Both the position numbers and the translations under genes were made by a program. A DNA stretch of 64,000 bases from Marsupella aquatica (Eukaryota; Plantae; Marchantiophyta). The stretch is from NCBI GenBank assembly GCA_973895155.1, contig OZ316891.1:1851324-1915323 (forward strand), given 5' to 3'. Shown here piece after piece: positions 8,574-64,000 of the stretch; within the stretch, counting starts at the first letter, position 1; every line of letters begins with the position of its first letter. The notes under the pieces were generated by a model. The model did not search any database. It was given only the letters and a program-made list of their open reading frames with translations, and was not told the DNA's origin.

Positions 8574-8729
8574 TTTCTAATTGGCTGCAAAAAATGTAGT
8601 TAAACCTCTTTTTTTTTCCTTATCATATTATTTCCATCCGCAAATTCACGTTATAATTTATCCAATTTTAGAAGTATTGAATAAATGTAATTTCTGTGAA
8701 AAAACTTTAATTATATTTTACTATCTATA

Positions 8730-10394: not shown

Positions 10395-10669
10395 CAGGAT
10401 GTTTCAAGTTTTATGGTTTATGGGAAGCTCACAATGTTGTATTCAAAATCACATATAATGAATCCACTTAAAACACTAAACTCACACATCACCTTATGTA
10501 CACATCATTCATAATGATATTGAAAAATTCAAAATCCAACATTCACAAGCTCTGATATAGAATGATTGAAAAAACATAAGTCTTTATGATGAAGAGATAT
10601 ATAGAAAGAGATATATAGAAAGTTCACATTTTACACTTGCATGAGTTAAACAATGGTAACCAACATTCA

Positions 10670-11082
10670 GGTCCTATGCCATTACCATTAGTCACTATAA
10701 AAGGCTTGTGAAAGGAAAAACAAAAAAAAAACTTTTCCATAAATCTTGTGAAAAATTTATGACCATTTCTTTATGGCCAAATGCACTCATCCATAATTTT
10801 CAAGCTTTGAGACCCCCTTTTACGATCCAACAGATTGCAGTTCTCGTCGAGCATTCTGGAGAAAGTCTGTAAGCACTTGACGGTCAATGACTTCACCCAG
10901 AAATAGCACGGACGAATTATTATACGAGACTACATGCTCTTCGATCATGGAACCACCGGATGACAAGAACTACAAGGTATGAAAACTCGGGATCGAGAGA
11001 AGACGGCCTTCTGAATGATGTGGTCGATGGCCCCGTGAGAAGAGAGACTTAGACGAATAGGCATCGATCACACAGAAGTGGC
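10670..11082. repeat. Right arm of the long inverted repeat
   Basis: Reverse complement of 1202-1507 plus 2627-2702. Confidence 0.9.
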
Positions 11083-26612: not shown

Positions 26613-28087
26613 ATGGAGAAGACAACGTCTACTATGACTGTGAAGACGGGTGTGACCCAAGGAGTCGAGAACGACAAGCGCAAAGACCAGTCAGGTTATG
26701 AAATTTTAAGTCAGGAGGACATCCACCAGCGCCAGGAAGACGCGGTTTCCAGGGTCACCAGGATCCTATCATTCTCGAGGCCTGAAGCCGTTGTTCTTTT
26801 GCAACATCTCGATTGGAACGTCAGCAACGTGCTTGAGGAATGGTGTGAAGATGAGTACCGACTTCGCGAATTTACGGGGCTTGTCCAATCCCATCCACAA
26901 CAGGAAGAGGAAAGGAGATCTCTTCCAGACATGACATGCGGAATCTGCTACGAGTCGCAGAATTCAGAGCACATGAAATCGGCCGCGTCGTGTGGGCATT
27001 TCTTCTGCGACACATGCTGGACGTCATACATCCACACCGCCATTGAAGACGGCCCAGGCTGTTTGACTCCGCGCTGCGCTCATCCGTCTTGCAGCGCTGC
27101 TATAAGGGAAGACATAGTTCTATCGCTGGTCTCAGAAAACGACGGAGCCAAGTACACAAGATACCGGCTCAGAGCGTTCGTGGAAGACAGCAAAACGGCC
27201 AAGTGGTGCCCGGCTCCGGGGTGCGAGTATGCTGTGGAGTGTGAGCATCTTGCTGGCTCTAAGTCCATTGTGTGGAAGTGCTCCCACAAGTTTTGCTGGA
27301 CTTGTTTGCAGGAGGCTCACCGGCCTGCAGATTGTGAGACTGTTGCGAAGTGGGTTCTGAGATTTAGTTCAGAATCCAAAAACATGAACTGGATTCTGGT
27401 GAACTCCAAGGCTTGTCCCAAGTGTAGGCGACCAATAGAAAAGAATGACGGGTGCATCCATATGACCTGCCAGGCACCCTGCAGGTTTGAATTCTGCTGG
27501 CTCTGTCTTGGAGCTTGGACCACTCACAATGAGGAGTCGGGAGGAAACTACGCTTGTAATGGATATGATGATTCCGTGAAACAGGGTCAGCTTGATGGAG
27601 CACAAGAAAGATAAACATGGCTAATGACTTCCGTTACACGCAGTTCTGTGAACGCTGGGTTGCGAATGAATCTTCGAAGAGAAAAGCCCTTGAAGTTCTT
27701 CAGCACGTGCAGTCCATCCTCTACGACAAGCAATGCCAAACTAAGTCCGAATTGGAATTCTTGAATAAAGCATGGGTGCAGATCGTCGACTGTCTACAAC
27801 TTCTGAAGTGGACGTATGCACATCACTACTATGAACCTGACCATGATCAAATGTTGGAGTACTCGCAGGAGGCAGAAGCCGTACTGGAGAGACTCCACGA
27901 GTGCGCCCAAAAGGAGCTGCAACAATTTCTTGACGGTCAAGAGACTCAAACTAGTCTCAACGAGAACCGTAATAAACTTGTAAACTTAACGACTTTAGCA
28001 CACGAACATTTTGAGAACTTTGTACAATACGTGGAGAATGGAGCACGTGATCGAGCAGATATACGGAAAACGTTTGAACGTAGGTGA
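26613..28087 (+). pseudogene. ARIADNE-like RBR E3 ubiquitin ligase, intronless CDS, frameshift near 27610
   Basis: UBA-like region (LLQHLDWNVSNVLEEW), RING1 (CGIC...CGHFFCDTCW), IBR (KWCPAPGC), RING2 (KACPKCRRPIEKNDGCIHMTC), then the Ariadne domain in a shifted frame (27617-28087). Acceptor cttttcag lies just before ATG 26613. Confidence 0.88.
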
Positions 28088-36000: not shown

Positions 36001-36110
36001 GCTCTCTGTTTAGCTAAGCAAAGTCCATTTCGTCCTTGGTGGGTCCGCAAAGCTGTATAATCCAGAAATCCCAAAGCTCCACAAAAATTACACTTAAAGT
36101 TTGAAGCCAT
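33013..36110 (-). CDS. Plavaka-type (CACTA/Mirage/Chapaev-related) transposase, 4 exons, about 901 aa, apparently intact
   Basis: Exons 36110-35207, 35063-34675, 34558-33809 and 33675-33013, with GT-AG introns joining in frame (2706 nt). Motifs: N-terminal CxxC...H...C finger, PIILYSDQT, GWPLVMTIGNI, CDQTE, CSCC, DGLHQSILGVFK, FNIVKVHAMSH...FEHLHI..K.PYRHSNKRN. Confidence 0.82.
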
Positions 36111-38839
36111 CAAAAATCCTGTTGTCCCTACACAGTATAAAATCAATAGTGTATTAAAACCACTACTCTGCACATCGATACTTATTGTTGATTACATTCA
36201 TTTGAAGCTCATAAAATATTCATGGCTCTCTTTCACCAAGACTTCCTTTTTCTAAATTTCTTCTGACCTTCCACTATTGAGTAACTACTTTTGTTGAACT
36301 GAGAAACTGCTGCTGTTGAACTGAATACAAAATTGGAAATTTTTCAATGAATTACTTAGGGAGTCACCTTAAGTCACCTGATGATGCACCTGAGTCCGCG
36401 ATGTGACTAATTATAGACCAATCCTTTGGTTGCACTAATAAATCACATCACATACCCACCTTCTGATGTCCGCCTCTGCAGAAAAAGCAACGTCTATCTG
36501 TCACTAATTGAACAGTGTCATACATTGCACGGAAGCAAATTGGCCATCGGTATCATGCACGAGTGTTGTTCTCGCTGTTGTGTTGATGTAGTAGCGTTAC
36601 TTCTCGCTGTGCTCACTCTTTGGAAGCGCTCGTTGGATTAGTCAATTTGTTCGCACCTACAGTAGGACGCATAGTTATGTGCAATAGCATTGGTGCAGTA
36701 GCGGTGTCTCTCGCTGAGTATGCAGTAGCGTTACCTGTCATTGTGCTCACTATTTGGGAGCCCTCGTTTCATTCATCAATTCGTTCGCAACTGCAGGTTG
36801 TTAAAGCTCCGCGCAATCTGAGCTCTATTAAACACTCTGTCTTGTTCTCAAGTCGTTTGCAACCAGGTCAAAGCATTTTCGCAAGCTCCCGGAAATAAAT
36901 CTTAGCTATTCGACTACACGCTCTCTCGTTTTGTTCGCTACTACATCTAATTGAAGCATTCTATCAAGGCGAAGCACAAAAATCGGAACTCCCGGCTATC
37001 ATGGCAATTGAAAAAGGTAAGAATCTCGCCCGGTTTCTTCCCTATCCCGTGTGATTTCTCCCTGCGGACGGACGGACAACAATTTTGCCGTAGGATCTGA
37101 CGTCCGGCTCTTGCCCATAGCGTCTCCTTTTGACTTGGGCTCCTAGTCAGATACTTCATCTTGACCTCTCCTTGACGTGCTCTAACCTGTCATCGAGCTC
37201 CTAGAGAAAAAGGAGATATATCGATGTTCCAATTATAAGCAGCCCGTACCATGCAGTGGTCCACAAACTTGTGAAGAATTCAGGGAGTTTGCCACCAAAT
37301 TCGATCCACTTACCTTCACATTAAAATATTCTAAACCCTTTCCTAACCTTGTCTCTTCGTCGATTTTCACTCGACCGCTTGACTCGAGACCTGTGCAAAA
37401 TTGCAAACTGGAGCTCGGCCCTCCCGTAGCAACATTTCTCTCTCGCTTGCAGCTTCCGCATCCCTTGCACTCGAAAAGAATATTATTACTTATTGAACGC
37501 GCTTGCATCTCCTCGACCTCTCTTGCTTTGAGGGAAAGCCCTTTGCCACCCTAGTGAGAAAGAAATCTGCAGCATATATCCTCTGCTGGTACCGCTTGCA
37601 GTACCAGCATCTTGCATCTCCTCGACCTCTGCGCTTGCATCTCCTCGACCTCTGCCATACTTGTCGATTCCAAGTTCGGCGGCCGAAGGGAGACCGACTG
37701 GCACCACTCTAGGTCTGTCCGTTCCGTTCAGAATGCCGGAACCTCGATCTCATCACCTTGCTTGCAAAACCAAATGCAATGTCTGAGCAACCGCGAGTCA
37801 ACTCACTAGGTGAACCCGCCTGTGAGCAATGCCGGCACCTCTCACTCACTCCCTGGTATAAGATTTAGCAGGGATCTTCCTCTCAATCGGTTGCATCCCA
37901 CTACCCTGAGGACCCCGAAATATTGCTTCATCGCATAGACTCTCTCGTCGGGAATTGTCTCTCTTACCACTACCGTGCGGTACACTCTCGTCCATTCTCG
38001 TTACTGCCGCAAGCATCGCGTCACTCATTTCCTCCTTTCTATCGGACGTTCCGTGTCCTATGGATGTTGACAGTCAAGGGTTAAATTACCTGACGGCGAG
38101 GAGCCCATCGGATGCTAGAGTAGAGCATTGCATATTGGACACTCGTTGGCATTTTGGCGCAGGACTCCAGAGAATCCATCCATTCCATCATCCGCTCGCT
38201 CTCCTTTCTTTCGGTAGCCTTAAACCTGAGTGACCTTCGAATTCTAGAGGACTGTATCACTGCAAGACGGCTCTGACGCCCGCACTCCCTCCACCAGCAA
38301 GAGGTTAAAATTTTCCAAGCTAATACTAGACACCGCTAGTCTCGAAAAGTGTCATGTCTGCAACGTGAACTGTGCAGTCCAGCCGACCAATTTGTCCACT
38401 TCTGTGTCTCTATCGGTCTCTCTCCCTCTCTCCTCAGTCTATTTCCTTTCCTCGGAAGCTAGCTCGCATTGTCCAAGCCCCTCTCTTATTCGAAAGCGAG
38501 GCATCAAAGCCACCTACTTGGAGCTAGGGAGGGAGAGGGACTTGAACTGTAAGTGAATCAATCAACTAATCAATCAGTCCAATCAACATTCTGAAAGTGA
38601 GGATATTCACCTGCTACATTCCGTGATTCGTAGCTGAACAGGACTTAACGATGGCTGAAATCTTCTCTAGCTCTTACTCTCAATATCTTGTCTCAATATC
38701 TTCTCTACAATGCAGCATAGAGTAGTATTCAATAATGCCCTCTTTGCTAATATGGGATAATGCCTTCTAAAGAGGACTCACTTTGGTATACAAAAAGAAC
38801 TAAAAATCATACAAAGGCGCGAAAGACAAACGAGGACTA

Positions 38840-43442: not shown

Positions 43443-44520
43443 GGATGGCTCTGCGGTGTGGAAATGCAGAGCTGGGAACAAATTTTGTCTCTCGAATCTT
43501 AGACTGATTCGTCCACCTCGGAGCCTAGAGGAAGGCGCTCAATCATGGACTTCTTGGTTTGAATCCAGTTTTCTTTTTTTGTCCGCTGTTGTTCTGAGAA
43601 AGTGGGAATCGGGGGATTTTTAGGAGGAGATGCCTCTGCGCTGTGGAAATATATGCAGAGGTGGGAAGTTCTTTCACTTCTCGAATCTTAGACTAATCCG
43701 CTCGCCTCGAAGCTGAAAGGAAGGCGCTGAATCGTAGACTTCTTGGTTTGCTGAATCCAGTTTTTTCTTGCTATCCTCTGTTGTTCTGGGAAAGGGGAAT
43801 CGGAGGATTTTTAGGAAAAGGATGGCTCTGGGGTGTGGAAATGCAGAGGTAGGAACGAATTTCACTTCTCAAATCTTACACTGATTCGTTCGCCTTGGAG
43901 CTTAAAGGTAGCCGCTGAATCGTGGACATCTTGGTTTGTGGAATCCTGTTTTCGCTTGCTATCCCCTGTTGTTTTGACAATGGGGAATCAAAGGATTCTT
44001 AGATGGAGGCCCTATTAAGGAACACGATCGTCTTTAGCAAAACATTAAGTGTTGAGTAATACACTGATTTGAAGTGTTGCATGTGAACTGTGCAAAATTA
44101 GCTGAGGACCTCAACAACTGGCTCTGCGCTGTGGAAATGCGGAGGTAGGAACGAGTTTCACTTCTCGAATAGATTTATCCGTTTGCATCGGAGCTTAGAG
44201 GAAGGCGCTGAATCATGGATTTCTTTGTTGTTGAATCCACTTTTCTTTTGCTATCCCCTGTTGTTCTAAGAAAGGGGAAATCGGAGGATTCGTAGGAGAA
44301 GGATGGCTCTGGGGTGTGGAAATGCAGAGCTGGGGACAAATTTCACCTTAGACTGATCCGTTCGCCTCAGAGCGTAGAGGAAGGTGGTGAATCGTGGTCA
44401 TCTTGGTTCGGTGAGATCCGTCCAGTTTTTTCTTTCGATTCACTGCTGCTTTGAGAATGGAAATATCAGAGGATGTTTAGGACAAGGATGACTGTGCTAT
44501 GGGGAAATGCAGAAATGGAA
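43443..44520. repeat. Degenerate tandem array, unit about 185-190 bp
   Basis: Motif ggatggctctg.g.tgtggaaatgcagag recurs at about 43443, 43629, 43820, 44120, 44301 and 44486. Confidence 0.85.
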
Positions 44521-46725: not shown

Positions 46726-47400
46726 GTCGACGTGCTGCAATCATAGTAAAGTAAGAGCAAGAGATGTGTGGTAGAATGAGCTGCATGCACAACCCAATAA
46801 CTACTTCTTACCCATTATTAAGTCAATATTACTACATCATCTATATGCGATCTTTTTTTTGTTTAATACATGGACATATCGTAGCAATCTATTGTTAATT
46901 TTTAATGTCTACCGGATATCTAACTGACGTTGGTTCAAGTACATGAACATTACAATTAAGCCATGACATGTTTTTATGTAAAAGTTATGACTCATATATG
47001 TCAATGGGATATGCAATCCAATTTACATCATAATCACATACAACCAATATCAACTTAGCATATTAAGCAGTTTGATACAAAATGATTGTCCAGTACACTC
47101 ATAGAATTGACGAAGAAACCATGTACTAATCCACCTTATGTCAAATACATATACACCTCAGTTTCGTGATGTTGAATAAGTTCAAAGTATAGGACATGTC
47201 CATATACTTGGAAAAACCAATTGCTTTTTCACTAAGATCACCGGCACTCTATTTTTCTTTGGGATGACAATTCTAGATTGCTTTCATTTAGTTTGTACAG
47301 GTTTTCTTCACTTGATATGATGGTTTCACTTGATATAACTCTGTTTGTTTTCTTTCTTCCATATATTGTGCAGGCCTTGGGATTGCAAAACTTGGAAAAT

Positions 47401-49019
47401 ATGGTTCTTTCAAATGAGGAACTTGAAATCATTGTGTCAACAATTCTTGCGTTCCAACAAGTGGTAGAGCAGCAAATGCGATTTGCAGCTCTTGTTGGTA
47501 ACTATTTTTTGGAATCAGGTGATGGGAGACTCCTTGCAAACTTGTTTATACTCTTCCAAACCATTCAACATGCATTTTTCCAGAGACCAGATCGTCTTCT
47601 ATCTGACAATTATATCGAGCCCAGATCTAGAGAATGGAGTGGCTGGTACCTTATGCATGTTATCGAAGACGATCCTGTCCGCTTCAAGCATTTGTTCCGC
47701 GCTCGGGGGTCTCACTATATGGGGACCTCCCCATCACCTGCAACGTTTTTAGGCCTCGGACCCCCTAAAATGTAAGAAAAAATTATTATTTTTTAACCCC
47801 TATAAAGTTTAAATATTCTTGGAATATTCCAAAAATTTGATTAAAAAGGCCCAAATGTTCTTATAAGTCTCAAAATTGAATTTAAAAGACCCTATTGTTC
47901 TTCTACAAAAATTCTTAAGTCTTCCCTTACAACCAATAAAATGACCCTATCCTTCGTCGCATGTGATATGCCATTTTTGTGGAAGTGAAACCCCCAAGGT
48001 TCCGCGTGTCACCCGCAACATTCATGTACATTTGCGACTTGTTTCGAGAAGATTTGACTACACATCCCCCACCTGGCCTTCGCAATTTGACCAACAGGGC
48101 ATTGTCCGTTGAGCGACAAGTTGCCATAGTGCTGCGTAGATTTGCTACTGGGTGTTTGTTGTTGACACTTTCAGAGATGTTTGGGGTTTCAGTTCCATGC
48201 ATTTCTGATGTGATTTGGCGATTTGTTAAGGCATTAACAAGACGCGGTAGAGAAAGATATTTGAGTTGGCCGCAAGGAGAGGCCATGGCAAGGGTGAAAG
48301 AGGAATTTTTCCAATTGCAAGGATTTCCAAATTTTTGTGGTGCAATTGATGCTACTCATTTTCAAGTAAAGTTACCTCTTGGAACAAACTCAACTGATTA
48401 TCGTGACTACAAACATGGCCAAAGCATTTCAATGCAAGCCATTTGTGATAGTCGACTTTGATTTTTGGATGTCTTTGCAGGATGGCCTGGTAGCATTCAA
48501 GATTCACGACTTTTGAGAGTCTCAGGTTTTTATGACGACGTTTTGACACACCGCACAAAACTCTCTGGTCTCACATTTACAGCTTCGATAGGATTCACTA
48601 CAGGGGAGTATATTATTGGTGATGTTGGCTACCCTGCTTATCCTTGGTTGCTAAACCCTTTTCCAGCAACTAGAGAGCATAGTCAAAAGAGAGAGTTCAA
48701 CTACAGGCTTAGCTCAACTAGGATGTGTGTGGAGCGTGCTTTTGGTCAAGTGAAAAACAGTTGGAGATTTTTTTCTCGCAAAATGTTTCGGCCGCATCCA
48801 TAGCAATTGCCACATTATATTACATGTGCATGCCTTTTGCATAACATTCGTATTGACCGTGGAGATGTATATGATCCAGCATGGGGTATAGATGCAGACC
48901 CTCCATATGAACCTGGAGGTCCCCCTGCTGCACCTCAAACTTCAAATAATGGGCGTAGATATCGTATTGCAATGATGAATCATTTGCTAACTGAGGGAGA
49001 ATGGGGGCATGAAGCTTAG
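47401..49019 (+). pseudogene. PIF/Harbinger DDE transposase (HARBI1-like), disrupted by a MITE and two stops
   Basis: FRVSPATF, GAIDATH, DVFAGWPGSIQDSR, IIGDVGYP, RMCVERAFG, ACLLHN. In-frame TGA at 48459 and TAG at 48801. Confidence 0.92.
47702..47998. mobile_element. MITE, 8-bp TSD family, inside the Harbinger transposase
   Basis: TIRs ctcgggggtctcact / agtgaaacccccaag. Perfect TSD gttccgcg. Removing it restores LFRVSPATF. Confidence 0.92.
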
Positions 49020-49177
49020 AGTGTGCTACCCGAGTTGCCAATAGATGTAATAGACAAAGATGAAATTTAATAAAACCAAACTGTGCATGAAAATGGCACC
49101 ATATTTTATTCATGTGCAATTATATGTTGTCATTTCAAGAAGTACACTTGACTTTAGAAATGGAAGTAGTTGCTTCT

Positions 49178-50341
49178 CTAAACCAAGTATGTGCAACTAC
49201 TCCATTGGGATGGTCGTGAAGAATTTGCTAGCTTCTCTAGAAGAATGTCATTCAAACGTCCCATCTGCTCAGCTGTTGTGGTTGATGCTGTGGTGATTGC
49301 TGTTGCCAAAACAGCAGATTGCCGCTCACGGCTTTCACAATCAAGCTTGGCCATGGAAACCATCTCTGCACAACTATTGGCCATGGATTTCAAATGTGCT
49401 TGTTTGTCGTTCCCAATCTTGGCTACCTTTCGCTTTACACCTCTATTGTCGGGGCCAGAGAAGTCCTGAGGGGATGATGGTTGCTGCACTCCACCTGTAC
49501 TCTCTGTATTTGGTTGCGCCCTCTCATGTGTTGGTCCTGTGAAATGTGTCTGGCTTGATGGTGCCGACCTGTCTTCCTCAACCCCAACATCATCATCACT
49601 TGTAGAATAGTATAGACATGATTCCTTGCATTTAGTAGAGCAAAGAGGAAGGAGAGAAATGTCACCCCAAAAATTTACAGTACCAATCCACCATAACAAA
49701 AATTAAATTGCACAATGTAAATGAAAGAAAAAATTCATCAGGTAGGAAAAAATAGATTACTCACTTCCAGATGACAAGTTGAATGGGTCCTGGTTTGTAT
49801 TGTGGTTCATCCTAGAGTAATCAGATAAAAACTCCGTAGGTGGCGTGATGTGTGGAACATCTTTATACCATCCCAACAGATCTGCGTACAGATCAACTGA
49901 GAAATGAGTCGGGAATTGTTGTAGGCGTCGCTCCTTCTCATCCATGTCAAAGTAAGAAATCTTCCCGGTCTTCTCCTTTCTCTCATAATCGTAAATCTTT
50001 TTGAACTTGCTGTCAATGAGCTGCCACTTCTTCTTGCAAGAGGATGGATCTCGAATAGGTCGGGTGAACCCCTCATCCTCCATAAATTTTGCCACGGCTT
50101 TCCATTTCAACTTGGTGCTAGTCATCTTTTGTTGCGTAGAACCCTCCATGATAACATTGAGGTATTCAGATCGCTTGGCTGCAATCAAGCACTTCATCTC
50201 CTCATTTGTCCAATCAGGCAACTTATTCTTGACTGGAGGTTGTGGTGCACCGTTAGGACCTGTACCAATGTTGAGGTCCAAGTCAACTAATTGAATACGT
50301 TCTAGTGAAGGTAGACCACGACTCTGCTTCTGGCTCGTCAT
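49178..50341 (-). CDS. Harbinger ORF1: Myb/SANT (trihelix-like) DNA-binding protein, two exons, convergent with the transposase
   Basis: WTNEEMKCLIAAK...KWKAVAKFM...RDPSSCKKKWQLI...SYFDMDEKERR, followed by an acidic and coiled-coil 3' exon. The acceptor near 49600 looks mutated. Confidence 0.82.
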
Positions 50342-52054
50342 TTGACATTACAGAGTAGCACTACTCCATATTTGTCGTTTTTGCGAAGGTCAATTACAAG
50401 GGGATAAACACACCGCGAAGCGCCGTTCATCGCTCATCTTGCGATGCAAACCGCATCTCAAACTGCAACACTGACACTCTCGCAACCATTATTTGCGAAA
50501 CCAACATCTTCGCAAATATTTGCAAAACCAAATATCTTGCAAAATGTTTCTGAACCTTTGAGCATTCTACTTAGTAGCGATGTTTACCGTTTTGCAAACA
50601 ACTTGCGACGCCGATTGCATCGATAACGTTGCAATATTTCTGTTATCAGAAAGCGGCGTGCGATGCAAAATTAATCGCAATACAGCGAAAGTAAGAGAAT
50701 CGCCAGTTTGCGAGGTGGTGTGGCTCGCAAAATCATGGCGCCTCAGTGGTTCTCTTTAGAGAAGGCTTGAGTTTCGGAAAGTTGAGATGCGCGTTGCTTC
50801 GGAATGTAGCGATGGTTTTGGGATGGGATCTAGCGATGAGGTAGGGATCGTTAATGTAGCCATTAGGTTGAGATGGGTGGGGGTTCGCAAAATGGTTCGG
50901 AAATTTGGTTTTGGGGTTTCTCAGATTTAGAAAGGGCATGGGACAAGGAATGGAGGAAGGAGGGTCAAGGAGAGAGGAGGGAGGAGGGAGGAGGTACACT
51001 TTAGGAAGAAAAGGAGGAGGAAGGGGTTGACTTAAGGGGGGACAAGGAACAAAGGGAGGAGGGCGGTTTAGGGTGCACAAGGAAATGAGGGAGGAGGGAG
51101 GTACCTACAGTTTAGGGAGGGAAAAGGAAAGGAGGGAGGAGGGAGGGAGGGTGGAAGGTATAGGTTTAGGAGAGGGACAAGCCAAGGAGGGAGGAGCATA
51201 GGTTGAGGACAGTGAAAGGTGGAAAAAATTGAGGGCATGTATAGGTTTTAAAAAGGAAGGGGTTGAGACAAGGGGAGGAGGGAGGTGGGTACAAGTACTA
51301 GAGAGAAACACTACAACACTATCGGCCGGTTTTGCAAAGACAATCTCATCGCAACTAACAAGCCCCTGATTTTCATAATTCTGGCCATTGCGATCATACG
51401 CGCATCGCACCACCTTTGCACTTTGCCAACCTAATAACTTCGCACGCGGACCATTGCAACGACATCGCAACACCATGGCAAACTGCGAAGCTGAGAGGTT
51501 CGCAAGATTCAATACTTGTGCGATCCATTATACGTCGCATAAGGTTCGCAAACATACACGCACACGTCCCGCGCAGGCGTCGATATTTGAGAAGGATTTA
51601 CCATCGCATCATATTTGCGAAAGATACTGGTTCAATTGTTTTGATGGGGATTGTATGACAAAGAGCGATACCGGTGATTTCAGAAGTTTGTGAACGGGTT
51701 CGATTAGGAAAGTTCGATCCTAGAAGTATCACAAAAACCCGACATATTTGGATCTGAAGTTCTGAAGTTAATTGACTCAAAAAGTGCGATGGCTTGGGGT
51801 TTATATTGTGCGATGGGAATGAGTTCTTAAAGGGTTCGCAAAATTATGATCACAGACATTATTTGCGAGGGGTTTTCCTTGGGACCCAATGTGGAAGGCA
51901 AAATTGTTGTTTTATAAAATGGAAAAGCATGAACAAAATGATAGGGCTTCAAAGAACCCTATACATGGACAAGAGGGGGGAAATGTCTGATGCTAGGCCC
52001 TTCTAAACCTATGCTGCCTCTTCCTACCCTAAGCTCCGGCATGACAAGTCACTC

Positions 52055-54116
52055 TCATGCATGTATCTCTACAAAATAACTAGAATGGGCTCTTGCGGCT
52101 CCTCTTGGTTGGCTTCTTGGCTGGCTTCTTGCCCTTATTCTTCCGGGGATCCTGTTGGTGACGGGTGCGTGATGGCCGTCGGCGCTCCTGCTCCTGTTGC
52201 TCCTCTGGCTCCTCCTGCCCCTCCTGCTCCTCCTCCTCATCCTCAGGGTCCTCCTTCTCCCCCTGGTCATCAACGTGTGCTGATGACACACGACTACCAC
52301 CACTACCACGGTGGGAAGAACCTACCTCATGACTACTCCCCCCCGAGCACCACTAGTACCAGGAGTAGCCCCCTCATCGTCATCACTACTGCTCACATCA
52401 GCACCCGACCCCTCAGGCTCATCCAAATCTTGCATCCATTACATATCATTAGTTTCCGCAAGACATAAAGGGTCACTCACAACGTTCGCATGCTAATCAT
52501 ATGGTTCACACTTAGACACTTATAGTAGCCAACTCGGCATCTACCATCGCAAAGAGGTACTTTCATCCATGCTCTATCGCCACCTCAATATGCTTTTTTG
52601 ATATCTTCCTTATGTACCTCCGATACTGCCATGCATAAAACCAATTAAAATTGGTTAAATTTGCCCTTAAGCATACCCTATAGCCACAAGTGACGCCTAA
52701 ATCCTCAACTACTAAACACGACCCAAAAAAAATTTAAAATTCAAATTTGTGAACTTATAAGCATGGCAACTTGCGAACCACATTTTTTGCGAAGGCGTTG
52801 CGATGGAGTTTGCGATGCGCATTTGTTTGCAAAGGCATCAGAAAATTGAAATGGAAAAAGTCCATGATAGAATTTGCGAGGGGTTTGCGAACAAATGCGC
52901 ATCGCAACACCTTCGCAAACTGTGTTCCCGAGAGTTTTGAAAAATTTGCCAAAAATTCTAAGTGTCAGAGTTGCCCTAAACTAGTAACCAAGCAAGCATG
53001 CACAACAGCAAGAACATTTGGGGATGTCATTCACTTGCATTGCACAACTCTAAAAGGAATAGAAAGGTTAGGGAGGAGCAAGAGGCACTCACAAAGTGTG
53101 ACTTGAGGCCGAGGAGCCCGCCTTGACCCAACTTGTGGACTGGATTGGGGGTGGATTTCACTCGTTTGGCTGCATCTGTGAAACGCTTGGGTGGCTTTCC
53201 CTCCTGGTCGGCCACCTTCTGCATCTCAGCTACCTTCTGCTCAAGTGGCTTCAGGTTGTGGTCAAGGGGGAGCTTCTCGGCCTCCTTTGCTTTCAAGGCT
53301 CGATCTAGATTTCCCTTCCACTCTTCCAACTCGTGAGCTGCCTTAATTTGCACCTCAATCTTGTAAAACGAATTCCAGATGTCCTCGGTGAAGTGGAGGG
53401 GTCTGCGCAAGTTCCTGTATGATCTCAAGTCTTTCAGGTGGGCTCTAATCTTCATCCTGTCATGGTATCGCATTTGAGACATAGAATTTGAAATCTTATC
53501 TGCCAACCATTGCTCATCTATGTCAGGCCCATTGCAAAATGCATCCTTGATTTGGTTGATGACCCTCTTTCGCTCTGCCTTCTCAATCTTCCCCCACTGC
53601 ATGCCTCGTGAGAAATTGCTTGTGATAATCTGCTTGATTGTGCTCTTAGCCCCTGCATACGCTAGCTCAGTTGGAGTCCCACTTGTCTCCAAGGCAATGA
53701 ATGGAAGTTTTTTCTTGCTTCCTCTTTCTGACGTTGCTCCTCCCTCTGTTTTCGAATTGAATCTCTCTCCTCTCTTCTCTTCTGCTTCTCTAGGGCTTGA
53801 GGAGAGGCAACTCCCGACTTAGTTCTTTCCTCTCTCTTCCTTTTTTTCTCTCTAGCCTTATCTTCAGCTGCGGCCCTCTCCTCCCCCTCTTAGTAGCTTG
53901 TCCTGCTACAATCCCAGTTTGCAAAACCTGTCCAAGAATGGCACTCAAAGAGGCAAGCCCTGTTGGAGAATTGAGATTCACTTCTCCCAATTGTGCAGCA
54001 CTGAGATGTTGGGCCACTAAGTCTGCCCAGGCATTCTTCTCTTTCTCTGGATTTCCCCCATTGCCACTACCACTACCACTACCACCTTGCCCTCCACTCC
54101 CCTCACCGGTAGCCAT
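52055..54116 (-). pseudogene. CACTA ORF2 (TnpA / Ptta-En/Spm-like), divergent from the transposase, frameshifted and internally incomplete
   Basis: MATGEGSGG...; W......R helical region; P..FTEDIW..F; HKLGQGG motif followed by donor ttt|gtgagt near 53092; acidic and basic tail at 52055-52330. Confidence 0.6.
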
Positions 54117-54599
54117 AGCTCCCCTCTCTCACAGTCTCCCTCGTACTGTCGCGTGCGCTCCGGCCCTTCTCGTCTCGCTCAAAAACTGAAATGAGCCCGA
54201 ATGCGAGCTCTCGCCGATGTTTACGCTGTTCAAAAACGGGTATGTGATGACATACGCATGGGAAACTGCGAAGCCCGCGCCCTCGCAAATAGTCTCGCAA
54301 CTTGCAAGGCACTTCCGAATCTATTCCCTTCGCAAGGCCATCGCAACCAGCAAAAGACTCAAAAAATCGTTCTCGGACTCTGTTTTTGCGAAGTAAGTGT
54401 GAAGGCCGTAGGTTCGCAAAAAGATTCTCTAACTTGTGAAATAATTTGCGAGGCAGGTCTTATCGGTTTAGGGTTGGAAAACACTTTGGGGTGTCAAACG
54501 GCTATTAAGGTTTGTCAAACGACATTTAAGGTATGTTAAGTTCCCGTAAGTTAACATGGAAGGGGTGGCAATGGATGTTTGGGTTGTAAGGATACCTCG

Positions 54600-55400
54600 A
54601 ATATAAGTTAACAAAGGTTTGAGTTTAATTAAAGGTTAGGTTTATATTTGGTTTTAATCTAGGAGTATTTGGTTTAATTAAGGGGGTTAGAACTTGGGTT
54701 AGGTTGGAATAAAAGGGTTGGGTTTAAATTAATGGGTTTGGCTTAGGGTTCAAGGTAGAGGTTTGCATTAGGTTGTGAGTAATTACAGGGGTTGGGTTTG
54801 GTTTTAGTTGAGGGGTTGAATTGTGGTTGTTTTTGAAAGGGATTGGGTTTGGTTTTTAGTTGGGGGGTTTAATTGTGGTTTTTTTAAAGGGGTTGGGTTT
54901 CTAATGTAAGTGTTTGGGTTGGGGTGTAACATGATATAGGGTTGGATTTGGTTCTAATTGAGGGGGTACAATTTTTGCTTAAGTTTTAAAAAAGGGCCTC
55001 AATTTAGGGGTTAGGGTGAAGTTTAGAATAACTATAGGGGTGGGGGTTGGCCTATATAGGTAAAGTAAGGTGTAGATACTAGGGTAAGGGTTTTATATGT
55101 AATTGGGGGATTTGGGTTGGGTTTAGGGTAAAGGTTTGAATTTTTAATGAGGGATTTGGGTATTGGTTAGGATAAGGGTAAGGGTTTAGGGTGATTGAGG
55201 GATTTGGGTTAGGTTTTAATGAAGTGTTTCATTTCATGGTTTGGGTTTAGGGTAGGGGTTTAGGGTAAAGGTTTGAATTTTTAATGAGGGATTTGGGTAT
55301 TGGTTAGGGTGAGGGTAAGGGTTTAGGGTGATTGAGGGATTTGGGTTAGGTTTTAATGAAGGTTTCATTTCATGGTTTGAGTTTAGGGTAGGGTTTGGGT
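54600..55400. repeat. Degenerate telomere-like (TTTAGGG / GGGTT) tract with a tandem duplication of about 137 bp
   Basis: Strongly G/T-skewed, with many gggtttaggg. 55119-55255 is repeated at 55256-55390. Confidence 0.8.
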
Positions 55401-55836
55401 TACTTATATTTCTTTCTCTATCTCATTAACATGGAGTGGAAAACTCTTTGGCGTTGTAGGGCACTTCCCCATGTTTTTTAAAGTTTTGGCTAATGCATGA
55501 TAATGCCTTGCGAGAGCCCGGGCATCTGAAAGGTATAACGTTTTCTCACGCATTTCTAGTCATTGCTGTAAATATGGAGGGTTACAATCTATCATCCTTT
55601 TTTTCTGGTTCACCATAAGGCATGGCTTAATTCATTGTATATTGGCAGATTTTCCCCTCCTTCCAGATTTGGTTCATGAAATTTGAGCCACAAGATCCGT
55701 CAAGGCATTGCTAAGCCCGAGTCTCATAAAGGTATTTTTCTGTCAATTCTTTTTAATATGTTTGGGTAGGGATTATCAATGATGGTTTTGGTGAAGTTTT
55801 TACTAATCGCCTTCCAATTGCTATATACTTGTCAGA

Positions 55837-56073
55837 TGTCTTCATCCTCTACAACTTCCACCACATCAGATTCCTCTTCCGATGAAGAAAGTCGTCCTCC
55901 TCGATCCTCAGCCTGAACCAACCGTACGTCGACCTAGTGGTCCACCACGCCAACTTTGTGGTTGTAAAAAATGTGTGGGGATGGTTGTCCAAAAGTCATA
56001 TGTATGTGCGGAGCACATTGCTCGATATGGCCAACATCGAGGTCTTACACCGAGAGCTTCTTCATCCCGTATG
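55837..56073 (+). CDS. First coding exon: transposase-associated Zn-binding domain (one frameshift near 55900)
   Basis: CGCKKC...YVCAEHIARYG fits the CxCxxC...HLxxxG pattern at CACTA transposase N-termini. Ends ATG|GTGAGT (phase-0 donor at 56074). Confidence 0.7.
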
Positions 56074-56185
56074 GTGAGTTGTAAACTTACTGTGATTTCC
56101 ATTTTATTTTGTAAATCTTGCTAGGTAGCATAAAATAAAATTTGGGAGGTTCATCACACTCACTTGGTTCCATTTCTTCCTATAG

Positions 56186-57008
56186 GTATCCAGTAGGCCT
56201 ACACCCACTACACCAACACCCTATGTTCCCTCACAAGGAGTTCTAGATGCTATAGGCTCGGCACTTTCACAAGCTTTTCGTTTAGTGGCAGCAGGGCAAG
56301 GTAGTGTTGGGACAATTCAGGGTGACGGTATTGGTACAAGAGGGAAAAAAAGTCAAAAAGACAGCCTAGAGGGGAAGTGGATCAGTACACTTGTAGGGTT
56401 GTTGATGGTAGATGGGGCCCTTGTACCTTCACAAGGAAGTGTGTTCCTATCTTAAAGGATTGGAATCCGGTCCGGAGTGCCTTGGTTTGCCATGTGATAT
56501 AACCTATGGTGAGGAGATAGAAGTTTGGGGAAGACGTTGGGTTGTCAAGAGTTTGACCCTAGGGGAGAGGCATGGGTATGGGATTTTCTCTTGTCAGGAC
56601 ATTATTGTGGATGATATGGGTGGAAAAGGGCGCTCTTCGGATGGACCAACGTTGTTCCCGTATGGTGGACCCATTTACAAGAGGAGACATTGGAACATGA
56701 TCCTTGTTCAACACCCTGAGTGGAAGACTTATGCATTGGACATGGATACTTTTGATGGTTGCACCAGAAAGTATTGTGACCAGCGTATAATTGATGGTGA
56801 TCCCATCCGTAGTGGGAATATTGCCGGTTTCATCAACAGTACTGTGGGGACCCAGCCTAAGCGTAGGAAAAACTGTGAATGGGTTTTTGTTGATGGTCCC
56901 CCTCCAGCCCCTTATGGGCAGAGATATCATCATGACCATTGTCTAGTTGTAGCTAATAGGACCATTCTGGCTGGAGAGGAGTTGTTTACACATTATGAAT
57001 GGGATTAA
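56186..57008 (+). CDS. SET-domain (lysine methyltransferase-like) exon; SET core open in 56412-57008, upstream linker with about two frameshifts
   Basis: Ordered SET motifs: VVKS....HGYGIFSCQDI, PYGGPI, YALD, IDGD..SGNIAGFINST, NC, LVVANRTILAGEELFTHY. Acceptor ttcttcctatag ends at 56185. Confidence 0.82.
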
Positions 57009-57977
57009 GATTACTTTAGGGACATGTATTATACGTTCATCGTATGTGAACGTATGTTTTGTAATGACATGTTCTTTTTATATTGTTAATAATATGTTTC
57101 GAGCACTACTATATTTGGAGTTAATTTCATTGTGAATGCTTTATTGTATTGTCTATAGTTCAATGTGCGGCCTAGTCAAGATATGTTGCCAAGGAGGTTG
57201 AGAGCTACATATCAAGAAATGGGCTTGCCACAAGACGGGGAAACATCATCAGCAGATTCCTCATCAAGGGACAATGATAATGACAGTCCAGATGAAGGGG
57301 CACCTTGGACAGATTATGAGGTCATGCAAGACGAAGAGTCAGCCATGGATGACTTCATGACAGATTGGTTTGGTGTAGACATTGGTGGTGAAGGAGGTGT
57401 CCCACCCAATGAAGGAGATCCTCCACCAAATGTTGCACATGATCCAAGGCCTCAACGTACACCTGAAGGACAAAAACAATGGGAAGAAGCTGCTCAGGCA
57501 CATGCTAGAACACCTATTTATGGGGGTGCTCGTTTGAATAGACTATCTGCCATCTTGGCATTGATGAATCTTCAGGCAAAACACAAGGCAAGCAATGCGC
57601 TACTATCGGATTTGTTTGCAATTTGCCATGATCTCTTGTTACCCAGTGAAAATGTTTGCCAGGAACTTGGAAGGAGGCAAAGAGGGTTCTATCATCCATT
57701 GGCATGGAATACCATATCATTCATGCTTGTGTGAATGACTGCATTCTCTATCATGAGACCAATGCCAGTGCAACTGAGTGTCCAATTTGTCAAGAGCCTC
57801 GATATGAAACCAACATGTTGACCTCAAAGGTGCCTAGAAAAGCTGTTCGTTGGTTTCCTATTATTCCTCGATTGTTGCACATGTACCGATGTTTTGACTT
57901 GGCAGAATTGATGGTATGGCATAAGACACATCGATCAGAGGCTGGTGTCATGCGGTTGCCAGTTGATTCCCCTGCTC

Positions 57978-58180
57978 CCCTGGGCCCTCACTCCGTGTAA
58001 AAGAAGTTGACCCCCCTGCGATCGGCCCCTTTTCGTGTTTACCCCTTGTTATTTCCATTTTACCATTAAAAGTTCTCTTATTATCGATAATAATTATAAT
58101 TATTAGTTCAAAATGAATAAAAACTACCCTTGGAGTGTTCGCACGTCTTGCATGTATTAGTTAAGACTGAGGGCCTAGGG
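57978..58180. mobile_element. MITE, 8-bp TSD
   Basis: TIRs ccctgggccctca / tgagggcctaggg. TSD ccctgctc / ccctactc. Removing it restores PVDSPAHKHVESQWP. Confidence 0.88.
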
Positions 58181-60385
58181 CCCTACTCACAAGCATGTGG
58201 AGTCACAATGGCCAGAGTTTGCACGTGACCCTCGTCATGTGAGGTTGGGGTTGGCATCAGATGGGGTGAGCCCACACTCCCTTGGAGGGAAAGGGCGCCC
58301 TACTTCGGTTTGGACGGTGGTTTTTATGAATTACAACCTTCCCCCATGGTTGTCCATGAAAAAAGGATTCTTATTGCTATCATTGATTATCCCAGGTCCA
58401 TCTAAGGTAAAAAACATGGACACCTACTTGGCGCTCTTGGTTGGGGAACTTCATAAATTATGGGGGGGTGTATGGGCATATGATGGTCGGACAACTACAG
58501 GAGGGTTACCACGTGTCTTCCAATTGAAGGGAATCATTATGTGGACCATGCATGACTATCCAGGTGAGTGGTATGGATTTGTATTTTTTTCATGTATTGG
58601 AGATCAAGTTTGTCTGGAAGGAAGTCCCTCTTTAATTCTATGTACATGAACTTTTCAATTCCTTTGACTCTCATGAGAATGTTATTTTGTAAGCAGGGTT
58701 TGGGTTTGTTTCTGGGTTCCAAACTCAAGGGTACAAGGCATGCTCCACTTGTGGTCCAAGCCTTCACGATATGGCCAAGTACTCAAAATGGCTGCACAAG
58801 ATAATCTACCTTGGTCATACCAAGTTTCTTCCACTTGGGCATCACATGAGGTCTGACCCCCTTTTGTTTTCAGACTTTGACATGATCAATGGTGATGAGC
58901 GTGAGATACCTGACCGCACAAAATTTTCGTATTGGAAATCCATAGCTGATAGGGTGGCAGACCCTGAAGATGCCATGGGATTTGATGGTAGTGGATTGAT
59001 AAGGTGGAGTATACTGGCCACTTTGCCCTATTGGCCTGAGTTGAAGATTCATCACTTGTTAGACCCCATGCATATAGAGGGAAATGTTGGGAAGGCTTTG
59101 ATCAAGCACTTTTATGGGGAAAAGAACATTAATTTTAGGGAGGCATGCCAGGATCTAGAACGACATCCAGATGTATGGATAACAGTTGATGAATCCACAG
59201 GGATGGAACATCGTCCTTCAGCTCCATGGGTTTTGAGTGTTGGTGAAAGAAGAGAGTTTCGACAATGCATAGGGCAGATGCGGTTTCCTACAGGCTATGG
59301 TGCCAATCTACGTAAGGCTTTTGGGATGGAGGACAGTCATAAATGACCAATGTATCTCAAGACACATGACTATCATCGTTTACTACAACATATACTTCCT
59401 GTGGCAATCATAGGTTTGGGGAGTGAAGAAGTGCAAGACACCCTTTGGTCACTGGGCACTTTGTTGAGATGGATATGCTCAAAGGAAATATATGAAGAAG
59501 AGATACCACGGATGGAGGTATTAGCAGAAGAGGTGGTATGCAAGTTGGAGAAGGCCCTCCCTCCTTCCTTCTTTGATTGTCAGGTGCATCTTCTCGTTCA
59601 TCTTGTGAGGGAGGTTGCCATTGCCGGTCCGGTGCATTGTAGGTGGATGTATTGGTTGGAAAGGTACATGGCCCAGTGTTAAAGGCTTATGTACGGAACC
59701 ATGCACGAGTGGAGGGGAGCATGGAAAATGGATACTTGGCAGCTGAGAGTATGTTTTATTGTAGTAACATCTTAGCTACCATTGATCCTAGTTGTCCATG
59801 CACTTGGATGGAAGAGAGGGAAGTGGAGGAGGACCATTTAACAGGTGCAAAAAAAACACGCTTACTAACCGCAGTGGAGTTGACACAAGTTAGTACTTTC
59901 ATGTTGAGTAACAACAATGTGATGGAAGATTGGAGAGAGTTTTATGAGGATGCAAAGAGGGAGAGTCGTCGCCCAAGAATCTTTCCAAAGTTCCTTGAGT
60001 ATATGAAGGAGAAAGTACTTCAGTTGGATGCTATGGTGGCCCAAGGTGAGAATGTATCACATTTTCCAGATATGACTCCTGAGGTTCGAACAATTGTTCA
60101 TGGTCCTTTAAGACTTGTTCAGACCAGAACAGCAATGTGGACACAAGGGAGGCATTTCAGGATTTCTGACCTTGATGAGAAGAGGGGAAGAACTTTTGAT
60201 TGTGGAGTTCAAGGGCAGTTCATGCAAGATTCACAAAGTAGCCGTCATGACACTAATGTGATCAGAGATGTGGTGCCTCACTATGGGAAGATTGAAGAGA
60301 TCTTGATCATATCCTATGATGCCGATTCCAGATTTGAAGAATATGCCTTCAAGTGTAAGTGGTTCAAAATTCACCTGGTTTGTGA

Positions 60386-60684
60386 CCCTGGGGAATCACT
60401 CGTTGGATTATTAGAACGGGGTGCGAACAAATGAAGGTTCTTTTTAATCTTGTTGGTGTAATAATTATAATCAAAAATTTGTACTAACTTAGGCGTTTAA
60501 AAATCCAATTTTGGTAAAAATATTAGTTTTTATATTCAGCAAGGTATTTAAAAATTTGTCAAAGCCATATAATCAAGGGTACAAGGGTATTTTTAATTGA
60601 ATTTATTTTTTCATTTATTTTTTCAAATTTCATTGGTTTGTTCTCACTTGTTTTAGGGGTTTTACTCTAAGTGATTCCCTAGGG
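60386..60684. mobile_element. MITE, 8-bp TSD
   Basis: TIRs ccctggggaatcact / agtgattccctaggg. TSD gtttgtga / gttggtga. Interrupts the transposase after CKWFKIHL. Confidence 0.88.
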
Positions 60685-61982
60685 GTTGGTGATAATCGCA
60701 CGGTACTTCTTGATGAGTGTGGGTTTACTCGACTGAAGACATCATCAACTAGCTTTCAACCATCTCATTGGCAAACATCTGAACCATTTACATTCCCAAG
60801 TCACCTTGAGCAGTGTTTCTATATTCCGTACTCACCAGACCCAGAGTGGTCAGTTGTTATACCGTATGTGCCACGGTCCCGTTCCATTATCTCGGAAAAA
60901 CCTGACGTTATTATTGTGTCAAATGGAGGAGAGGATGAGGACCAGGTTTGATGCACTAGTAGTAAAACTTGTTGTGGGCCCAGAATTTGACCCTAAACTA
61001 ACTATCATGGTTTTATTTATATTAACATATTAATTTTCTTCTTTTGTTTTACAAACACTTAATTGGACTTTGAAATTTCATCTCACTGTTATATATGCAA
61101 CCCTAGCCATTTCCAAAGCTATCCTCATGCATGCCACCTTTTTGAAAACCCTAGCTGTAACCTAAACACATGCATTCTCCATCTTGTAAAGAAACTCTCT
61201 CAAACATTTCCATTCTACAAACTTTTCAAACAACTCTCTTTGCAAAACATTTTCAAGCTTGTCAAGAAGCAACTTCTGAACACTTTGTGAATAACACACC
61301 ATCGGTAATTGTGATGCCAATGGGTTCTCAACTTTGCGAATCAACTGGCTTTGGTAACTTGCAACTATTTATACTTCACAATATTGTGCGAAGCTAATAG
61401 GTTCACAAGATATATTTGAGTACATTATTATCACTAAATTATGAAACAAAAGAGATCCAAATGCAGTCGCGATGGTCACGGATCCACAAATACTTTGTGA
61501 GACAAATAGTATCTGAAAGAGTTGCGAATTCAATCCGATCTCAAACAAATTGCGAGGTATTTAGCTTCGCAACACTATGTTGCAAACCTTTGAGCATGGT
61601 TTATTGTGATGCGTGTTTGATCACAAAATATCTGAAGTCGATGACATCGCAAGACCATCCCGGCGTTAAAAAAAAGCTTCGCAAAAGGGGCCAATATGTA
61701 GTAGTGAAAGGCTAGGGGGTGGGAGAAGGAAAGCTACGAGGAGGAATGACTACAAGCGACATGAGTTTTCTTTTCATAAAGTGTACCAAAAGGTGTGGGA
61801 GTGTACATAGGACTGTGGGGATGGAAGATGTAAAAAAGCCACATTTAAAATTGATATACTTACAAGATTGATTTGGGCAAGTTACATAAATTTATTAATA
61901 ATTTAGAAACACATATTTCTCCAACCAAGAAGAGAGATCCTCATGTTCAAATCTAACTGTATATCCACATAACATATACCCC

Positions 61983-64000
61983 TCAAACTTGGTCCTCATC
62001 CTCTTCAGGTTGGGACACAACCAAAATATCTGGTTTTTCCCCAACAACTGAACGAGATCGTGGCACATATGTGATGACAAGTGACCATTCCTCTGGGTTT
62101 GGGGGGTATGGAATATAGAAACATTATTCCACATGACTTGGAAAAGTGAACGTCTTCGATGTTTGCCAATGAGATGGCTGGAAACTAGTGGCAGATATCT
62201 TTAGCGGTGTAAATCCACACTCATCTTGAAGCACGGTAGGACTGTTACCTGCAAGGGTCACTTTGAACCACTTGCACTTGAAGACATACTCTTCAAACTT
62301 TGATTGTGCATCATAAGAGATCACTAGGATCTCCTCTATCTTTCCATAATGTGGCACAACATCTCAAATAATATTTGTGTCATGGCGACTGTTGCGGGAA
62401 TCTTGAGAGAATTGTCCTTGAACTCCATAATCAAAGGTACGACCCCTCTTCTCATCAAGGGAAGAAACCCTAAAATCCACCAAACCATAAGGACATGTTA
62501 CAAAAATAGGCATAAACATATAACAATTAATATCACATGCCAAAAAATTATCTCTTCAATATATGTGGGTGTATTACACATAAATTAAAATCACCATAGA
62601 TGAAAGGTTACTAAGGTACTTGGAAATAACCTGAAATGTCTCCCTTGTGTCTACATTGCCGTCCTTGTTGTAACCATTCTCAAGGGACCATGAACAATGG
62701 TACGGACATCATCTATGATAGCTGGAAAATGTAATAGATTCTCTCCCCTCGCTACCATGTCATCCACCTCAACCAACTTCTCCTTCATGTAGTCATGGTA
62801 CTTTGGAAAGATCCTTGGTCTTCTACTGGTACTTTTGGCATCCTCATAGAAATCCCTCCATTCTTCCATGATAGTGCTGTTACTCAACATGAATGTGGTT
62901 AGTTGTTTCAACTCCACTGGTGTCAACATGCGGGTTTTGATAGCACCTGTTAAACGATCCTCCTCATCTTCCCTCTCCTCTACCCAAGTACGGGGAGAGG
63001 TACGATCAATTGTGGCCAATATGTTACTGCAATAGAACATACTCTCTGCTGCCAAGTATCCTGTAGCCATGCTTCCCTCAACCTGTGCCTGGTTACGTAC
63101 ATAACCCTTTAATACTGCCATGTACCGTTCCAACCAATACATCCACCGACAATGCACAGGACTAGCAATGGCCACCTCATGAACAAGATGAACAAGTAAA
63201 TGCACTTGGCAATCAAAAAAGGAAGGGCCTTTTCTAACTTGCATACCACCTCTGCTGCCAGTACCTCCATTCCCGGGATCTCTTCATAGTATATCTCCTT
63301 AGAACATGTACCCATCTCAATAGTTTTCCCAATGACCAAATGGCAGATCTTGCACTTCTGAACTTGCCAAACCTATTATGGCCGCGGGCAATATATGTTG
63401 CAATAACTGATGATAGTCATGCGTCTTGAGATACATTGGCCACTTATGATTGTCCTCCATCCCAAAGGCCTTCCGGAGATTGGCACCATAACCAGTAGGA
63501 AACCGCATGCCTCCTATGCGATTCCTAAACTCCCTTCTCTGGCCAACAGGAAGCACCCATGGGGCTGAAGGTCGATGTTCTATCCCTGTGATAGGATCAA
63601 TTGTGACCCATACATCTGGATGCATCTCAAGATCCTCATAAGCCTCCCTAAAGTTAGTGTCCTTTTCTCCACAGAAAGCCTTTATCAAAGCCTTTCCCAC
63701 ATTTCCCTCAATGTGCATGGGGTCTAATAGATGGCGGATCTTCAACTCTCCCCAATAAGGCAAAGTGGTTAATATACTCCATCTAGTCAACCTGCTACCC
63801 TCAAATTGCATGGGATCCTCCGGGTTTGCCACTCTATCAGCCAAGTCTTTCCAATGTGCAAAAGTTGTTGGCTCTGGTATATCACGTTCATCACCAAAGG
63901 CCATATCAATGGAGGAAAATAGTAGTGGGTCAAACCTCATCTGATGGCCCATTGGCAGAAACTTTGTATGCCCAAGATAAACAATCTTGTGAAGGTGTGA
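61983..64000 (-). pseudogene. Second CACTA transposase (3' half), related to the inner one
   Basis: LDPMHIEGNVGKALIK, RFPTGYGANLRKAF, LKTHDYH, SPVHCRWMYWLERYM, HYGKIEEI...FKCKWFK. Frameshifts and stops; intron 62470-62630. Confidence 0.93.

Follow-up and report, generated by a model that had tools for sequence, protein, structure and literature searches.

A conserved SET exon lies inside the transposase gene of a CACTA transposon family of mosses and liverworts

Introduction

A contig of the liverwort Marsupella aquatica raises the question of what a CACTA transposon does with an open reading frame that has the motifs of a SET domain. The window analyzed here is the whole stretch of 64,000 bases from contig OZ316891.1 (GCA_973895155.1), positions 1,851,324 to 1,915,323 of the forward strand, and all coordinates below count from its first base. 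To our knowledge, the anti-silencing proteins of plant transposons (TnpA, VANC) are DNA-binding factors, and none is known as a chromatin-modifying enzyme. A first-pass annotation had proposed that the frame encodes a transposon-borne chromatin writer or a decoy. The unusual feature of the locus is a SET exon inside a transposase gene, conserved and transposon-borne; here we ask what it encodes, how it is kept, and what its product may do.

Results

A complete element inside another CACTA

The SET frame belongs to the inner of two nested CACTA elements:

51309..61706 (+): inner CACTA, complete, 10,398 bases; CACTAC ends, AAA at 51306-51308 and 61707-61709
50359..51305 (-): outer CACTA, distal end, with CACTAC at 50359; insertion target of the inner element
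61710..64000 (-): outer CACTA transposase, ~78% identical to the inner transposase; continues past the window edge, so that any SET position would lie beyond view

CACTA termini and terminal inverted repeats are present. Contigs from runs X1 and X4 carry the empty site, joining 51304 to 61706; the 10,401 bases they skip correspond to the inner CACTA plus one 3-base duplication, which indicates a complete element. An empty-site-like joint also occurs in contigs of run X2. The first-pass annotation had called a complete CACTA with terminal inverted repeats and a target site duplication, and the CACTAC ends, the AAA on both flanks and the empty-site contigs agree with it. Among metagenome loci of the same family (see below), CACTAC-type ends were also found in L007, L010, L020, L023, L032, and L035; L023 is itself complete, with an ACA target duplication.

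Several other features of the window were recorded along the way. A Harbinger-like element lies at 47236-50347, with DDE_Tnp_4 frames on the forward strand and a Myb/SANT frame on the reverse, and a Plavaka-type transposase with an N-terminal zinc finger lies in several pieces at 33013-36191 on the reverse strand (PF18759, E 2e-21). A gene for an ARIADNE-like RBR ubiquitin ligase, intronless and disrupted by a frameshift, occupies 26280-28087 (+) and has a partial duplicate, 87-91% identical, 27.8 kb upstream at 66-1097. Tandem repeats include a 12-base array (10183-10407) and an array of 185-190-base units (43446-44518). At 7528-8576, an insert of plastid origin contains a ccsA fragment and, on the other strand, an open cysT-like sulfate permease frame; it sits within a 9.9-kb unit that has 220-base inverted repeats at its two ends (1290-1509 and 10780-10999). 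According to the accessible text of PMC5877570, cysT has been lost in mosses (few sampled) and kept in a liverwort and a hornwort. There are hints that the insert came from a liverwort- or hornwort-type plastome.

The frame encodes a SET fold

The open frame at 56412-57008 carries the SET motifs in order: HGYGIF (56571-56588), YGG (56661-56669), GNIAGFINST (56814-56843), and GEELFTHY (56973-56996). The chain stops three residues past the last Tyr, and the cysteine clusters that may precede or follow a SET domain are absent. Motif order, NST in place of NHS, and missing cysteines had all been read from the sequence earlier, and the motif positions and Pfam match agree. Pfam SET matches the frame at E=3.8e-6 (27.7 bits vs. 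a cut-off of 22.4), and 53 of 64 aligned relatives match PF00856 at E<=0.1. A structure model built from these 64 relatives has a pLDDT of 90.1. All 40 Foldseek matches listed for it are SET enzymes, the best at E 1e-7 (SET8, LegAS4), and a second structural aligner gave Z scores of 11.1-12.4 over 118-135 residues (rmsd 2.2-3.2) against solved SET enzymes. The SET call thus passes both a profile search and a fold comparison, and that the frame encodes a true SET fold is settled.

The first description of the domain as “minimal” was not borne out. The folded module comprises ~200 residues, among them a hairpin-helix extension at the N terminus and an inserted helix (pLDDT ~90), and is preceded by a zinc-finger exon, whereas chlorovirus vSET is a stand-alone domain of ~120 residues that forms a homodimer and acts on H3K27. 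Viral SET proteins matched at only 8-20% identity, and vSET and PRDM chains do not appear in the best 50 structural rows, an absence that does not exclude them as matches.

No clear best match to one host class emerged from comparison with SET1, SET2/ASH1, SUV39, E(z), SET8, and ATXR5/6, and none of the class-specific flanks (pre-SET, AWS, CXC, post-SET) was found. Z scores for Set1, ASH1L, SET8, EZH2, SETD7, and LegAS4 lie within ~1 of each other at 16-27% identity. Among solved structures, LegAS4 matches best by sequence (profile, E 7e-5) and comes second in Foldseek; a single-sequence search of solved structures returned nothing, the profile search alone giving matches. As judged from the model, the structural ties span H3K4, H3K36, H4K20, H3K27, and non-histone enzymes, so that an activating mark is not favored over a repressive one.

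A moss and liverwort transposon family with fixed gene order

Identity was 63-81% for the 47 proteins that a word search returned, and some of these belong to clusters with 75-360 members. A profile search against 1.84 billion representatives gave 110 clusters (50% identity) at E<=0.001. Of the 30 clusters that we looked up, 20 belonged to these 110; no canonical or near-identical host SET protein was found among the examined clusters of the 110. Named sources are Sphagnum species, Calypogeia fissa, and Riccia sorocarpa, and intact, high-copy members are present in Sphagnum and liverworts. A tree of 57 of the 64 aligned rows (seven were too short) covers family members only, to the exclusion of SETs from hosts, viruses or bacteria; it has several deep subfamilies, with Riccia in two. 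With narrow search patterns, none of 92 matches in viral contigs was a relative, and the 2 of 20 matches in prokaryote genomes that passed weakly were both short motifs in unrelated frames. Seven proteins (P0194 and P0195 from Calypogeia fissa, with P0165, P0186, P0191, P0198, and P0209) are distant SET-family members with other N-terminal regions, and may reside in other transposon types.

Genomic context came from 37 metagenome loci, from which L036 and L037 were removed as chance matches. The transposase lies directly downstream of the SET exon in 20 of the remaining 35 (11 end too soon), and in four a truncated SET is followed by other DNA. The upstream zinc-finger exon (exon 1) was found in 20 of 35, and the divergent gene ORF2 upstream in 12; L004 and L022 are long enough to contain ORF2, yet lack it. 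A Riccia sorocarpa gene model fuses SET and Transposase_21, as do three further proteins. The SET gene is therefore transposon-borne, with a fixed gene order across mosses and liverworts.

One first exon, two predicted products

The gene containing the SET exon is laid out as follows:

55836..56073 (+): exon 1, with a Ser-rich start and a C-x-C-x2-C...H zinc finger (PF13963 E=0.013, below cut-off)
56074..56185 (+): predicted intron, GTGAGT...TATAG, GT-AG, phase 0, as in the 343-aa Sphagnum models
56186..57008 (+): SET exon, comprising linker, N-terminal extension, SET domain (~56520-57005), and stop
57009..57158 (+): non-coding stretch with a second phase-0 acceptor (TATAG) at its end, directly preceding the transposase core
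57159..60951 (+): Tnp2 transposase core, with Transposase_21, DUF4218, and DUF4216 (the last below the Pfam cut-off)

The first-pass annotation had described the frame as intronless. This holds for the SET core, which lies in one exon, but the gene as a whole has the additional exon at 55836-56073 and the GT-AG intron at 56074-56185. The 343-residue Sphagnum relatives contain the same parts as the window gene: Ser-rich start, C-x-C-x2-C...H finger, linker, and SET. The exon 1 finger, modeled at low confidence (pLDDT 58-77), resembles the transposase-associated domain, which normally opens Tnp2 transposases, and the transposase core begins 150 bases beyond the SET stop.

The exon 1 donor and its phase are the same in all 11 Sphagnum-like loci in which the end of exon 1 was found, and 10 of these keep the AG of the SET acceptor. 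The transposase acceptor, CATAG|AAT, is present in 18 of 19 loci and mutated in one. Donor and both acceptors are also in phase 0 in the more distant L009, which brings the arrangement to three subfamilies, counting the window and the Sphagnum-like loci. Residues ahead of the first Met of the transposase are conserved (NIRPSEDM vs. NVRPSQDM). From the common phase of the two acceptors and these conserved residues, we infer that exon 1 is shared: its donor probably joins the SET exon in some transcripts and, skipping that exon, the transposase core in others, giving a finger-SET and a finger-transposase product. Counting against a shared exon 1, the transposase exon has its own Met. None of the seven transposase proteins examined (from 11 matches, mostly single-exon gene calls) joins exon 1 directly to the transposase core. 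Contigs from the four runs show no joint at the predicted introns; the kind of contig is not given, so this bears neither way on splicing. The zinc-finger exon, probably common to both products, had been overlooked earlier.

Purifying selection on the family, decay of the window copy

By the Nei-Gojobori method, dN/dS for the SET core is 0.15-0.20 between the window and 20 loci (dS 1.0-1.3, near saturation, with pairs that are not independent) and 0.29-0.32 between L009 and four loci. Values for the other parts are 0.11-0.17 for the transposase (12 pairs), 0.15-0.29 for exon 1 (6 pairs), and 0.13-0.19 for ORF2 (4 pairs). Purifying selection on the SET exon, like that on the transposase, is thus supported. 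For 19 near-identical loci, the median SET value is 0.86 (171 pairs), which indicates that single copies decay freely after insertion. A dS of ~1.1 to Sphagnum-like elements appears low for the liverwort-moss split and may hint at horizontal transfer.

The window copy is dead in all three genes. Frameshifts upstream of the SET core, noted in the first pass, are located at ~55901 in exon 1 and at ~56344 and ~56466 in the SET exon. The transposase is broken by indels, a stop, and two insertions (~57972-58183 and ~60376-60684), and ORF2 is frameshifted near 53890 and 52337. High-depth contigs from four runs are free of the three SET-gene frameshifts (55901 is uncovered in X4; depth is not copy number), and the dominant family contigs also lack the transposase lesions. 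The family sequence is thus unbroken, with a dN/dS well below 1, two points that the first pass had proposed to check. The insertion at 60376-60684 is itself missing from family contigs in three runs, with very high depth, and is probably a small high-copy element.

The broken window copy and the near-neutral ratio among close loci are what one would expect had a host SET exon been captured by chance and left to drift. Between lineages, however, the low ratios, the position of SET fixed across mosses and liverworts, and the 110 clusters, with no canonical SET protein among those examined, all speak against chance capture, which we regard as having a nearly negligible probability. It is largely refuted by the layout of the loci, the unbroken family contigs and dN/dS, and the earlier judgment that this is no random host fragment stands: the family has many copies, and the profile search gave no near-identical host SET.

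Catalytic residues and possible substrates

Key residues are kept in 89-100% of the rows that cover them, in an alignment of 64 rows that are 26-50% identical: G55 in 56/59, G57 in 59/60, Y89 in 61/62, N142 in 57/64, N154 in 63/63, E190 in 56/58, and Y195 in 53/57. At the position of the NHS His, 61 of 64 rows have Ser, which makes the His-to-Ser change a family trait rather than decay; N142 is replaced by Gln in five. Among the motifs for SAM binding and catalysis given in PMC6054832, GxG and ELxF/YxY with its catalytic Tyr are present, while NH(S/C)xxPN is incomplete, with the Asn kept and the His lost. The same source reports Cys for this His in PRDM9, and LegAS4 carries Phe. Since both are active without the His, its loss bars the family from the canonical subfamilies but not from activity.

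The Legionella enzyme LegAS4 is reported to trimethylate H3K14, with a SET domain that is inactive alone and requires its ankyrin partner domain (PMC10653858). The chain in the bryophyte family ends three residues after the Tyr, leaving no post-SET lid, and a partner may therefore be needed. A predicted complex of SET and ORF2, made without alignments, scored 0.00 and speaks neither for nor against such a pairing. On the residue pattern, we consider it likely that the family protein is an active enzyme, perhaps dependent on a partner, and there is a good chance that it binds SAM and methylates a lysine. The lost His, the absent post-SET segment, and the Gln at N142 in some rows would also fit a protein that has lost catalysis and serves as a reader or decoy, either by binding a histone tail or by titrating partners of host methyltransferases. 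We think this improbable, because GxG, the Asn, the Glu-Leu pair, and the catalytic Tyr are conserved across such divergent rows and because active SET enzymes without the His exist (LegAS4, PRDM9).

An active enzyme need not act on histones. SETD7, a broad protein methyltransferase, ties for best fold match and gives the longest aligned stretch (134 residues), and the low identity to every histone enzyme (17-27%) leaves room for a non-histone substrate such as a host silencing factor or one of the element's own proteins (transposase or ORF2). The SET protein would moreover be placed at the transposition complex by the shared zinc finger. By sequence, the closest solved structures are nevertheless histone enzymes, and other transposon SET genes have been described, by homology only and in the accounts accessible to us, as histone methyltransferases. 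We therefore rate a non-histone target as unlikely.

ORF2 and clusters of TCGCAA

The element contains a second gene and four non-coding motif clusters:

52083..54116 (-): ORF2, second gene, divergent from the SET/transposase gene; no Pfam match
51309..51871 (unstranded): left terminal inverted repeat and subterminal TCGCAA cluster (8 copies)
52547..52918 (unstranded): TCGCAA cluster in an ORF2 intron (9 copies); matching cluster in L023
54280..54451 (unstranded): presumed promoter between the divergent genes, with a TCGCAA cluster (7 copies) and no CpG depletion
61334..61706 (unstranded): right terminal inverted repeat, with a subterminal TCGCAA cluster (6 copies)

Thirty of the 31 TCGCAA copies in the element fall inside the four blocks, which make up 20% of its length and were delimited after the counts were seen. 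L023 has 29 copies vs. 4.7 in shuffles, 27 of them in the same four clusters. The CpG observed/expected ratio is 1.0-1.3 in the blocks, 0.3-0.4 in coding regions, and 0.87 in exon 1. Between the presumed promoter and exon 1 is a degenerate, G+T-rich, telomere-like repeat tract (54520-55420) with an internal 137-base duplication.

The Arabidopsis TnpA-Spm1 motif is given as YCCTCGCAA (bioRxiv 10.64898/2026.08.24.746577). Exact copies number three in the window, all within the blocks, a marginal count that 4 of 100 shuffles reached. The nearest named Atlas family to ORF2 is Transposase_24 at 0.75, a weak lead. ORF2 may be a TnpA-like DNA-binding protein and, on weak evidence, is the candidate binder of the TCGCAA clusters. 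In VANC systems, motifs are clustered in introns and in intergenic and terminal non-coding regions (PMC5735166). By analogy, the TCGCAA layout suggests an anti-silencing setting, to which the present data do not tie the SET protein; TnpA alone, without any SET, can be enough to explain anti-silencing. Subterminal motifs are also needed for transposition.

These clusters, which retain CpG and look like targets of anti-silencing, count against a SET protein that writes a repressive mark, whether as a brake on the element itself or as a means of shutting down host defense genes, as vSET does with H3K27. So does the lack of relatives among the 92 pattern matches in viral contigs. The tie of EZH2 for fold score, and the nearest Atlas clusters beyond the family's own, which include giant-virus SET proteins at 0.96, lean the other way, as do the many liverwort and hornwort transposons reported to carry H3K27me3 (bioRxiv 10.1101/2022.10.24.513474). 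On balance a repressive writer seems quite unlikely.

Discussion

The reading we prefer, which we place a little short of an even chance, is that the family makes a zinc-finger-SET lysine methyltransferase, by predicted alternative splicing, that marks the chromatin of its own copies against host silencing. Exon 1 would be spliced either to the SET exon or to the transposase core, and the resulting finger-SET protein would bind SAM and methylate a lysine. Either the shared zinc finger or the TnpA-like candidate ORF2, sitting on the TCGCAA clusters, could recruit it to the element, and its target would be a histone lysine whose methylation opposes silencing. A more far-reaching version, which we put forward tentatively and find doubtful as a whole, is that of an ancient land-plant transposon lineage with a self-made, sequence-targeted histone methyltransferase, formed by splicing a transposase zinc finger onto a separate SET subfamily and placing a protective, perhaps non-canonical mark on its own copies. 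It would be the first self-encoded chromatin writer of a land-plant transposon, possibly with horizontal transfer between mosses and liverworts.

Should the SET protein prove active and targeted, this would be a transposon that writes its own histone marks, in plants where many transposons lie under H3K27me3 rather than H3K9me2. Intact natural members make the family directly testable, and a SET domain this small, equipped with a targeting module, could also serve epigenome editing.

Comparison with published systems

The first-pass annotation took a SET gene in plant CACTAs to be undescribed. This novelty was overstated: four transposon groups with SET are in print, one of them within the CACTA superfamily. 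SET genes have been published in HarbingerS and MuDR elements of Phytophthora (PMC12730594) and in Phytophthora Helentrons, the latter Clr4-like with 50% similarity (PMC4067079), and the accessory gene PAG2 of red-algal Plavaka elements (EnSpm/CACTA superfamily) includes a SET domain (bioRxiv 10.1101/2025.02.11.637652). The idea that Cryptons are further carriers finds no support in the accessible text of PMC3212892. In the literature outside Repbase Reports, subscription journals and bioRxiv supplements, we found no land-plant transposon with SET, and no assay of the SET in the published accounts of SET-bearing transposons that we examined.

PAG2, as far as its accessible description goes, resembles the bryophyte gene as a long-kept SET on a CACTA-superfamily element that is proposed, by prediction, to act on chromatin. 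It differs in being a separate gene, a fusion of N6-adenine methylase and SET beside the Plavaka transposase. In the bryophyte family, SET follows a transposase-type zinc finger inside the Tnp2 (Transposase_21) gene, a layout that sets the two apart, and no methylase family was found on the full-length relative P0011, a 343-aa Sphagnum protein. HarbingerS, MuDR, and Helentrons are likewise DNA transposons with a SET gene, but of other superfamilies and hosts; compared with the Clr4-like SET reported for Helentrons, the bryophyte SET stands well apart from every host class and is without the NHS His. LegAS4 (RomA) shares the lack of this His and of cysteine-rich flanks, at 20-27% identity, but is described as a secreted bacterial effector with ankyrin repeats, which are absent here; the match does not imply kinship or a common substrate.

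Among anti-silencing systems, VANC of VANDAL MuDR elements offers an accessory protein and similarly placed motif clusters (PMC5735166), but belongs to another superfamily, is not described as a SET protein, and has a demonstrated anti-silencing activity that for the bryophyte family is inferred. TnpA-like proteins are reported only from flowering plants, and Spm genes as alternatively spliced, in the accessible text of bioRxiv 10.64898/2026.08.24.746577. With TnpA and TnpD of En/Spm, as described there, the bryophyte family shares a CACTA element, alternative products of one gene (predicted here), motif clusters, and the TCGCAA core. TnpA is a DNA-binding protein with no known enzyme domain, whereas the alternative product here is a predicted enzyme, and the TnpA-like candidate is encoded by a separate, divergent gene.
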